64,000 nucleotides of DNA from Escherichia coli (GCF_001677475.2 NZ_CP015229.1); one strand, 5' to 3'. Counted from the first letter of the stretch, positions 12,113-12,386 are shown. Made by a program: numbers and translations. The notes: generated by a model not told the origin, from the letters alone.

Positions 12113-12386
12113 TCCCCCCGTTAATTAACTTCGGCAAAAATATATTTCTTACTGAATAAATATCGACGACATTTATTATATAAATGTAGTGAATATTTAC
12201 TCATCATTTATTGATTATAAACATGTACAACCTGGCGCACAAATTTAATATTTAATTTCTGACTTTATTTCAAGTTGTGATAAACATAGACAAGTTGTCA
12301 GACAGGTTAACCAATTTGTCGCACAAAGCACTGATAAGCACAATTAGATATCAACCAATTTCCATCCTTCAACAGGGAGTTTTTTT

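Follow-up and report, generated by a model that had tools for sequence, protein, structure and literature searches.

A predicted CRP-dependent, ExuR-repressed control region upstream of an accessory, hexuronate-type TRAP transporter operon in Escherichia coli

We report an analysis of the intergenic region between hemW and dctP of Escherichia coli (GCF_001677475.2, NZ_CP015229.1), set within a stretch of 64,000 nucleotides that was analysed as a whole and is referred to below as the window. The spacer is followed by the three genes of a TRAP transporter operon (Table 1). The intrinsic terminator of hemW marks the upstream limit of the control region and is invariant amongst E. coli alleles, as judged by a terminator scan, an inverted-repeat scan and an alignment of the alleles. 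The operon is damaged in this genome: dctM is cut at position 14506 by an IS66-family element (14504-17012), a second copy of which, inverted and 99.96% identical to the first, lies at 46047-48554, and the 3' part of dctM, along with yggM, is inverted and adjoins that second copy. Insertion and inversion have thus broken dctM, such that in this strain the promoter drives a broken operon.

Of 5426 complete E. coli genomes, 1480 (27%) contain a match to the spacer, mostly at 95-99% identity, ST131 and ST648 isolates being amongst them. In these genomes a three-gene TRAP islet is located between hemW and yggM, and no regulator gene was found within it; in K-12, REP-like repeats occupy the same position in place of the islet. 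A genome scan gave orthologs at 80-98% protein identity in Citrobacter, Klebsiella, Kluyvera, Pseudocitrobacter, Buttiauxella, Pluralibacter, Phytobacter, Edwardsiella, Mangrovibacter, Enterobacillus and others. The operon directly follows hemW in most genera, including Citrobacter, Klebsiella and Kluyvera, and, given this synteny, the islet looks like an ancestral one that K-12 has lost, not a recent acquisition. The TRAP system of the BEN2908 paper was considered as a description of the same locus and set aside, as it lies elsewhere (ygiQ..ftsP).

The closest relatives of DctP with solved structures are 4n15/4n17, 4ln5, 4ovr, 4mhf/4mij, 4x8r, 4n8y and 4n91, with E-values from 1e-57 to 1e-66. 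4N91 binds D-glucuronate, 4MHF binds D-glucuronate and D-galacturonate, and 4N15 was the template for the Salmonella protein STM3169, which binds D-glucuronate with a Kd of ~0.2 uM (PMC7660916). Residues R151, R171 and N211 of DctP align with residues conserved in these solved relatives and have the spacing of R150, R170 and N210 in STM3169. The genomic context in other bacteria is of the same kind. In Aeromonas rivuli, a 60%-identical operon is divergent from uxaC-uxaB-uxaA and has exuR directly after it (442 bits for the NCBIfam ExuR equivalog, whose cut-off is 396), and in Gallibacterium the operon is accompanied by a uxuR-like gene, a mannonate oxidoreductase (uxuB) gene and uxaC. Since the nearest solved relatives and the genomic context agree, the operon very probably encodes a hexuronate (D-glucuronate/D-galacturonate) uptake system, in the role that exuT plays in K-12.

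Table 1. Features of the hemW-dctP region, with positions counted from the first nucleotide of the window; conservation is the mean majority-base fraction amongst non-Escherichia orthologs.
Feature	Position	Strand	Conservation	Description
hemW	10937-12073			478 bits against the NCBIfam HemW equivalog
hemW-dctP spacer	12074-12386 (313 bp)			hemW stop to dctP start; the first 40 bp are the terminator hairpin and T-run
hemW intrinsic terminator	12076-12111	+		11-bp stem ATTAATGCGCC/GGCGCATTAAT, loop TGCG, then CACTTCTTTT; hairpin 12076-12101, followed by the T-run
Distal AT-rich stretch	12113-12225		0.53	holds most of the polymorphism within E. coli
B1, distal CRP-like site	12226-12246			16-mer TACAACCTGGCGCACA, centre 12233.5, about -90.5 from the predicted start
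B1, conserved block	12228-12244		0.78	
B2, proximal CRP-like half-site	12271-12291			TGTGA at 12276-12280 within 16-mer TGTGATAAACATAGAC, centre 12283.5, about -40.5
B2, left half	12271-12280		0.83	
Operator O1	12291-12309			CAAGTTGTCAGACAGGTTA, core TTGTCAGACAG; centre 12300, about -24; ExuR-type palindrome
O1 core	12294-12306		0.85	
UxuR-type (GT-N2-AC) box	12300-12317			AGACAGGTTAACCAATTT; overlaps O1 and O2; weakly supported
Predicted -10	12312-12317	+		CAATTT; TAAGAT, TAATAT or TAAGCT in orthologs; predicted start ~12324 +/- 2
Operator O2	12312-12330			CAATTTGTCGCACAAAGCA, core TTGTCGCACAA; centre 12321, about -3; weaker ExuR-type site
O2 core	12318-12328		0.92	
B5	12345-12361			TAGATATCAACCAATTT, TAGATAT-NN-ACCAAT; predicted leader +22 to +38
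B5, conserved block	12345-12358		0.68	
Sequence between blocks	various		0.44-0.55	
Shine-Dalgarno AGGGAG	12374-12379	+	0.92	conservation is that of the ribosome-binding site, 12373-12379
dctP	12387-13373	+		NCBIfam; start codon ATG at 12387
dctQ	13409-13921	+		NCBIfam
dctM, 5' part	13921-14506	+		NCBIfam and comparison with the intact operon

Alignment of the 330 nt upstream of dctP, with conservation taken over 22 non-Escherichia orthologs, reveals a series of conserved islands that hold a fixed spacing across more than ten genera within otherwise scrambled sequence. Spacing was measured in 26 sequences, being 25 genomes and the window. O1 and O2 are spaced by exactly 21 bp in every one of the 26, whilst B1 and B2 are 49-50 bp apart in 25 of them and 44 bp apart in Phytobacter. 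The centre of the TGTGA motif lies 18.5 bp from the centre of O1 in most sequences and 16.5 bp from it in Escherichia and Enterobacillus, E. coli being 2 bp shorter than most genera between these two elements; from the TGTGA centre to the final base of a TAAnnT pattern there are 35.5 bp in most sequences and 33.5 bp in E. coli. The distal AT-rich stretch holds the decayed remnants of a yTCG-N7-CGAr palindrome (12130-12144) and of TATTTCCGAAnAAT (12146-12161), both of which are conserved in other genera. The palindrome has the T-N11-A form of LysR-type boxes. A search for linked regulators at the orthologous loci found an adjacent LysR gene in Edwardsiella only, and none in Buttiauxella or Mangrovibacter. 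Other factors may be involved in regulation through this upstream T-N11-A palindrome and through B5.

O1 has the features of an operator for the hexuronate repressor ExuR. Sites of the FadR subfamily are built from TKGT/ACMA boxes, in which the gap between GT and AC is 3 nt for ExuR and 2 nt for UxuR (PMC4494728), and O1 takes the ExuR form, TTGT-CAG-ACAG, with 3 nt between GT and AC. A symmetrised position weight matrix (PWM) was built from 40 non-redundant published ExuR sites, mostly comparative-genomics predictions (PMC4494728 supplement), and scores O1 at 17.6 bits, where the training sites have a median of 17.8 and a range of 7.9-24.7. This is the best match in the 64-kb window, the next best having 11.6 bits; a position in random sequence would score this high with a probability of 3e-7 if the sequence is uniform and of 9e-6 if it is AT-rich, which over the whole spacer comes to ~0.003. 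A search for the idealised consensus AAAGTTGTNNNACAACTTT with up to 3 mismatches gave no matches, because O1 has 4 mismatches to that string, and the PWM is the better test. DgoR, FadR, PdhR and LldR were considered as binders of O1 and rejected: their PWMs (PMC4494728 supplement) give -7.6, 7.0, 3.4 and -1.7 bits respectively, all under their own training minima of 10.9-20.6 bits, in a test of specificity that covered these four regulators.

The two operators are found well beyond this strain. The E. coli-like sequences have O1, as do 26 of 30 further Enterobacterales orthologs, with the site at -76 to -90 relative to the ATG; the O1 core is invariant amongst E. coli alleles, and the divergent allele AH19B041, which is 89% identical, has a slightly better O1 (19.8 bits). 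O2, in the orthologs, is found at -55 to -79 from the ATG, where it reads ATGTCATACAG and scores 8.8-15.5 bits, the core of this sequence being that of the ExuR site of K-12 exuT read on the other strand; in E. coli it keeps the palindrome arms and the right form but scores only 6.0 bits. In each of the 31 Enterobacterales orthologs examined, one or both operators reach 8 bits or more at the equivalent position; the check for presence of the regulator alongside its sites covered the linked exuR of Aeromonas, and exuR itself is outside the 64-kb window. In that Aeromonas cluster, which serves as a positive control, the ExuR PWM finds sites before uxaC, dctP and exuR (20.4 bits). The ExuR sites published for K. 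pneumoniae and C. koseri (PMC4494728 supplement) do not include any for this operon. No link between the TRAP locus and ExuR was found in the literature searched, which did not take in the regulon of Suvorova et al. (2011), so that a prior listing is possible.

Upstream of the operators there are two CRP-like sites, for which matches were scored by simple counts rather than with a CRP matrix. In B2 the TGTGA half is perfect and is preceded by an A-run, whereas the right half is poorly conserved (0.55), matching in E. coli at 1 of 5 positions and giving 6 of 10 core positions overall; in E. coli, and there alone, B2 also looks like the left half of an ExuR site (5.7 bits). Mangrovibacter, Buttiauxella, Enterobacillus and Gallibacterium have B1 as a complete GTGA-N6-TCACA palindrome; the group of Escherichia, Klebsiella and Citrobacter has kept only its GCGCACAAAA half, which in E. 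coli is the right half, GCACA followed by an A-run.

The TAAnnT pattern directly abuts O2 on its upstream side in nearly all orthologs, and the corresponding CAATTT of E. coli makes a weak -10 hexamer. Were transcription to start 7 nt after this hexamer, the TGTGA site would be centred at -41.5 +/- 1 (-40.5 in E. coli, -42.5 in most orthologs), a position that fits the placement of CRP at a class II promoter. No conserved -35 element was found amongst the orthologs. A simple sigma-70 scan found no plus-strand promoter in the spacer of the window or in Klebsiella; the same scan also misses the K-12 exuT promoter, is therefore uninformative for activator-dependent promoters and weighs little. 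The geometry, with sites at about -41 and about -91, fits an activator-dependent promoter, as does the lack of a conserved -35, and the assignment of these sites to CRP is probable.

Taken as a whole, the arrangement of the sites makes it likely, in our judgement, that the spacer is the promoter-operator of an accessory hexuronate TRAP dctPQM operon, being class-II CRP-dependent, ExuR-repressed and hexuronate-induced. We infer the following scheme. Transcription would start near 12324 from a weak sigma-70 promoter with CAATTT as its -10 and no recognisable -35, and this promoter would need cAMP-CRP bound at the class-II position, on the TGTGA half-site centred at about -41, with the second CRP-like site ~50 bp further upstream possibly assisting. 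When hexuronates are absent, ExuR, a regulator of the GntR/FadR family, would bind O1, between the CRP site and the -10, and, more weakly, O2, which overlies the predicted start two helical turns from O1; on these operators it would occlude RNA polymerase until released by hexuronate-derived inducers. In Escherichia, the overlapping UxuR-type box may add control by UxuR. Most likely, then, the region is a new member of the known ExuR (and CRP) regulon and not a new kind of element.

A possible part for UxuR can be taken further. The UxuR-type box matches 13 of 16 positions of AAATTGGTNNACCAATTT and is the only match in the window with up to 3 mismatches, where 0.48 would be expected per 64 kb. 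Within it, GGTTAACCAATTT (12305-12317) recurs unchanged in the K-12 uxuA promoter, in the gntP-uxuA spacer, which UxuR binds in SELEX (PMC5934670), and it stands where other genera have GGATAATAT. One could suppose that, in Escherichia, an ancestral ExuR/CRP promoter has been remodelled into a hybrid control region that integrates ExuR, UxuR and CRP, though we think this rather unlikely. The lineage-specific changes concerned would be the 2-bp deletion, the loss of a good -10, GATAATAT, in favour of GGTTAACCAATTT, and the conversion of O2 from GTCATACA to GTCGCACA; together they would have created the uxuA-like UxuR-type box as well as a third ExuR-like half-site (the first copy of CAAGTTGT) over the CRP site, giving three or four phased sites (12280, 12300, 12308.5 and 12321) in addition to B5 at 12352.5. 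If such remodelling has occurred, two repressors would be in direct competition with CRP.

An alternative is that UxuR, an ExuR-UxuR heterodimer or a further regulator of the FadR subfamily such as LgoR, and not ExuR alone, is the main protein on the operators, in which case the operon would be glucuronate-specific. The identity with the uxuA promoter segment and the SELEX result for that spacer (PMC5934670) speak for it, as do the GT-N2-AC spacing of the box, which is of the UxuR type (PMC4494728) and is shared by B5, the glucuronate specificity of the Salmonella relative STM3169 (PMC7660916) and the Gallibacterium locus, whose regulator scores higher for UxuR than for ExuR. However, the N2 box occurs in Escherichia only, is broken (it reads GGTTAACA) in allele AH19B041 and is of a quality expected about once in every two windows of this length by chance (the 0.48 above), whilst the operators that are conserved across genera, O1 and O2, are of the N3, or ExuR, type; we therefore hold this alternative to be quite improbable. 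A UxuR operator of the form TGGT-NN-ACCA with AAAT/ATTT flanks, conserved amongst orthologs, was sought and the box was rejected as a member, being restricted to Escherichia and altered in the divergent allele. There are no UxuR sites in the PMC4494728 supplement, and the K-12 lgoR-lgoD region gave no clear sites.

The repeated motifs that first drew attention to the spacer can now be placed against these sites. The first-pass annotation had read them as candidate operator or promoter elements for a regulator of the TRAP operon, and the motifs that it quoted are indeed present: CAAGTTGT at 12271-12278 and 12291-12298, 20 bp from start to start, and the pair formed by GCGCACAAA at 12235-12243 and TCGCACAAAG at 12319-12328. 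A third exact repeat, AACCAATTT, which it did not list, occurs at 12309-12317 and 12353-12361. Of 1000 dinucleotide-preserving shuffles, 17-20% contain an exact pair of 8-mers no more than 30 nt apart and 28-36% have a longest direct repeat of at least 9 nt; the total of 8-mer pairs is mildly high, at 7 observed against a shuffle mean of 1.6-2.2, and 2-4% of shuffles attain that total. Real as they are, the repeats are near chance and not significant as repeats, and the significance of the region comes instead from conservation and motif scoring. All four motif copies lie inside or overlap conserved blocks, with a different block for each copy. The first copy of CAAGTTGT overlaps the conserved TGTGA (CRP-like) half-site of B2 and the second is the left half of the palindromic O1; GCGCACAAA is the right half of the distal CRP-like site B1, and TCGCACAAAG is the right half of the weaker operator O2.

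It follows that the idea of a control region stands, and that of a repeated operator for one regulator does not. The short direct repeats (CAAGTTGT twice, CGCACAAA twice) might still be thought of as iterated sites for a single dedicated regulator, for which one can cite the reality of the repeats, copy spacings of 20 bp and 84 bp that are close to whole helical turns, the mild enrichment in 8-mer pairs and the ExuR-like score of the first CAAGTTGT copy (5.7 bits), which would give a phased series of three sites, half or full (12280, 12300 and 12321). Against this, an 8-mer pair so close together is found in 17-20% of shuffles, the four copies fall in four different conserved blocks, and the islet is without a regulator gene, the best candidate for the regulator being ExuR, a repressor of the core genome. 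Nor are the repeats kept as repeats outside Escherichia, so that the ground for refutation named in the first-pass annotation, a lack of conservation of the repeats in orthologous upstream regions, applies if it is read literally: other genera read AAAAATGTGA at the first copy of CAAGTTGT and GTCATACAGAAA in place of TCGCACAAAG, and even within E. coli, allele AH19B041 has CAAATTGT at the former position. It is the underlying sites that are conserved. The ortholog comparison largely refutes iterated sites, which we consider very unlikely, and the case illustrates how short repeats picked out by eye can turn out to be parts of separate palindromic sites.

The strong AT-richness that had been noted for the spacer is borne out, its GC content being 27-34% in 200-nt intervals as against ~0.50-0.58 in hemW and 0.35-0.47 across dctP. 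One may then ask whether the spacer is simply the AT-rich margin of an islet gained by horizontal transfer, subject to non-specific silencing such as that by H-NS, with fortuitous motif matches. Its GC content of 27%, compared with ~42-46% for the TRAP genes and ~52% for the flanking core genes, would suit such an origin, as would the presence of the islet in 1480 of 5426 E. coli genomes and the poor conservation of 12113-12225. But the blocks hold a fixed spacing in more than ten genera whilst the intervening sequence is scrambled, no site in the 64 kb scores higher than O1 with the ExuR PWM, and the locus is syntenic after hemW in Citrobacter, Klebsiella, Kluyvera and others, all of which makes this explanation highly implausible; H-NS could nevertheless bind the distal part alongside the ExuR/CRP scheme proposed here.

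The centre of B5 lies 31.5 bp from that of O2, a distance fixed in most orthologs although the linker is not conserved, and B5 reads as a half-site of the ExuR/UxuR kind (ACCAAT) with 2.6 bits from the ExuR PWM. That B5 and the ribosome-binding region are conserved, and lie within a predicted leader of 63 nt, might suggest that the conserved blocks work through the RNA, whether as a riboswitch, a structured leader or an sRNA target, but this is hardly credible, since an Rfam scan of 11900-12600 at permissive E-values gave nothing near threshold (the best, STnc130, has 22.6 bits where the gathering score is 55), RNAalifold predicted 0 pairs for a set of 16 orthologous leaders, the leader of the window folds worse than its shuffles (z = +1.39) and the strongest blocks are upstream of or on the predicted start.

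The ExuR/CRP scheme gives an unannotated accessory TRAP transporter a likely substrate and a concrete regulatory assignment that can be tested. This transporter is found in about a quarter of E. coli genomes and in many Klebsiella, Citrobacter and Kluyvera species. A related glucuronate TRAP system of Salmonella has been linked to macrophage survival, and knowledge of a probable response to hexuronates through ExuR and CRP would aid studies of sugar-acid use in the gut and the urinary tract.

Four known systems invite comparison. The Salmonella operon STM3169-STM3171 is, like the present one, an orphan three-gene TRAP operon with no linked regulator or catabolic genes (PMC7660916); its binding protein falls in the same structural cluster (4N15 template), and homologues elsewhere are linked to uxu/uxa genes. 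It differs in its chromosomal locus, Salmonella being absent amongst the 80-99% identical orthologs, and its regulation has been described in terms of ppGpp and macrophage induction and not of ExuR (PMC7660916). The Aeromonas uxaCBA/dctPQM-exuR cluster contains a homologous TRAP operon (60% DctP identity) with ExuR-type sites before dctP (15.7 bits), near uxaC and before exuR. There, unlike in E. coli, the regulator and the catabolic genes are physically linked to the transporter, and the promoter blocks cannot be aligned with the enterobacterial ones except for a GATGT-N3-AC core.

The operators of E. coli uxaB, published as GAAGTTGTCTGACATCTTT and CAGGTTGTATGACTAATCA (PMC4494728 supplement), share the TGTCnGACA core of O1, and both promoters have two sites; O1 of Klebsiella (TAAAGATGTCAGACAAC) equals the distal uxaB site over 17 consecutive nt on the other strand. 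The spacing and position of the sites differ, however, and uxaB encodes an enzyme, not a transporter. With respect to the K-12 exuT promoter, which is ExuR-repressed and CRP-dependent, the differences are that exuT encodes an MFS transporter and has one listed operator, whereas the present operon encodes a TRAP transporter and has two phased operators 21 bp apart, that there is an extra distal CRP-like site here, that exuR is not adjacent in E. coli and that the operon is accessory (27% of genomes). In both promoters, nonetheless, a CRP site (here a CRP-like one) is followed about 20 bp on (~21 bp in exuT) by a GT-N3-AC palindrome of the ExuR type (TGTGATGGCTCTCACC ... AAAGTTGTATGACAAGTTA in exuT), the core of the ortholog O2 is that of the exuT operator, and the role, which for the TRAP operon we infer, would be the uptake of hexuronates.

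In the window dctM, the last gene of the dctPQM operon for an inferred hexuronate transporter, lies in two pieces, associated with two nearly identical copies of an IS66-family element (see table). Since these copies are inverted with respect to each other and the 3' part of dctM lies with yggM at the second of them, the arrangement indicates that insertion of the IS66 element, followed by inversion of approximately 29 kb, split the gene. The resulting junction was found in no complete E. coli genome of the collection.

Features at the dctM disruption, in window coordinates
Feature	Position	Strand	Remark
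dctM, 5' part	13921-14506		
IS66-family element	14504-17012		tnpA, tnpB, tnpC
Second IS66-family copy	46047-48554		inverted, 99.96% identical to first
dctM, 3' part	46050 to 45328	minus	beside second IS66 copy
yggM	44263-45267	now plus	beside second IS66 copy

At the ST648 locus (L001), dctM (13848-15149) is a pseudogene with an internal stop according to the RefSeq annotation; the transporter seems to have been lost repeatedly within E. coli. In K-12 the hemW-yggM gap (L002, 4405-4558) carries REP/BIME-like repeats (GCCGGATGCGGCG...) in place of the TRAP islet of other strains, with no remnant of the TRAP promoter left in this gap.

The second-best match in the window to the matrix of published ExuR sites, AAAGAGGTAAAACAGCTGT (11.6 bits), falls within dctP at 12540-12558, +154 from the ATG, and at the equivalent position C. 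sedlakii and Pluralibacter reach as much as 17.6 bits. This stretch encodes the conserved peptide KEVKQL, so that coding constraint is the simplest explanation of the match; an intragenic operator is the less likely reading. In Mangrovibacter (L029, L030 and L034, about 5674-5692), a strong ExuR-type site of 17.2-18.5 bits adjoins the TRAP operon and precedes both a divergent gene, with a weak match to oligoalginate lyase, and a sodium/solute symporter gene, which suggests a broader cluster for the utilisation of uronate polymers under the same regulator as the TRAP operon.

The distal AT-rich part of the hemW-dctP spacer contains an imperfect inverted repeat of 24 nt (12153-12203; 83% complementary, 3-nt gap), in a region that varies among E. 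coli alleles and shows no conservation in other genera. Block B5 (TAGATATCAACCAATTT, 12345-12361), in the predicted dctP leader, is conserved and lies at a fixed 31.5 bp, or three helical turns, from the centre of the weaker ExuR-type operator O2, the stretch between the two being without conservation; by its sequence B5 looks like an ExuR/UxuR half-site. Further upstream, about 230-270 nt from dctP, a yTCG-N7-CGAr palindrome is conserved in other genera (loci L006-L033), as is TATTTCCGAAnAAT some 30 nt after it; the window equivalent is 12130-12161, and the E. coli palindrome is without its right arm (TTCGGCAAAAATAT). The palindrome has the T-N11-A arrangement that characterises LysR-type boxes, and in Edwardsiella a divergently transcribed LysR-family gene (L025, 4702-5718, minus strand) adjoins it.
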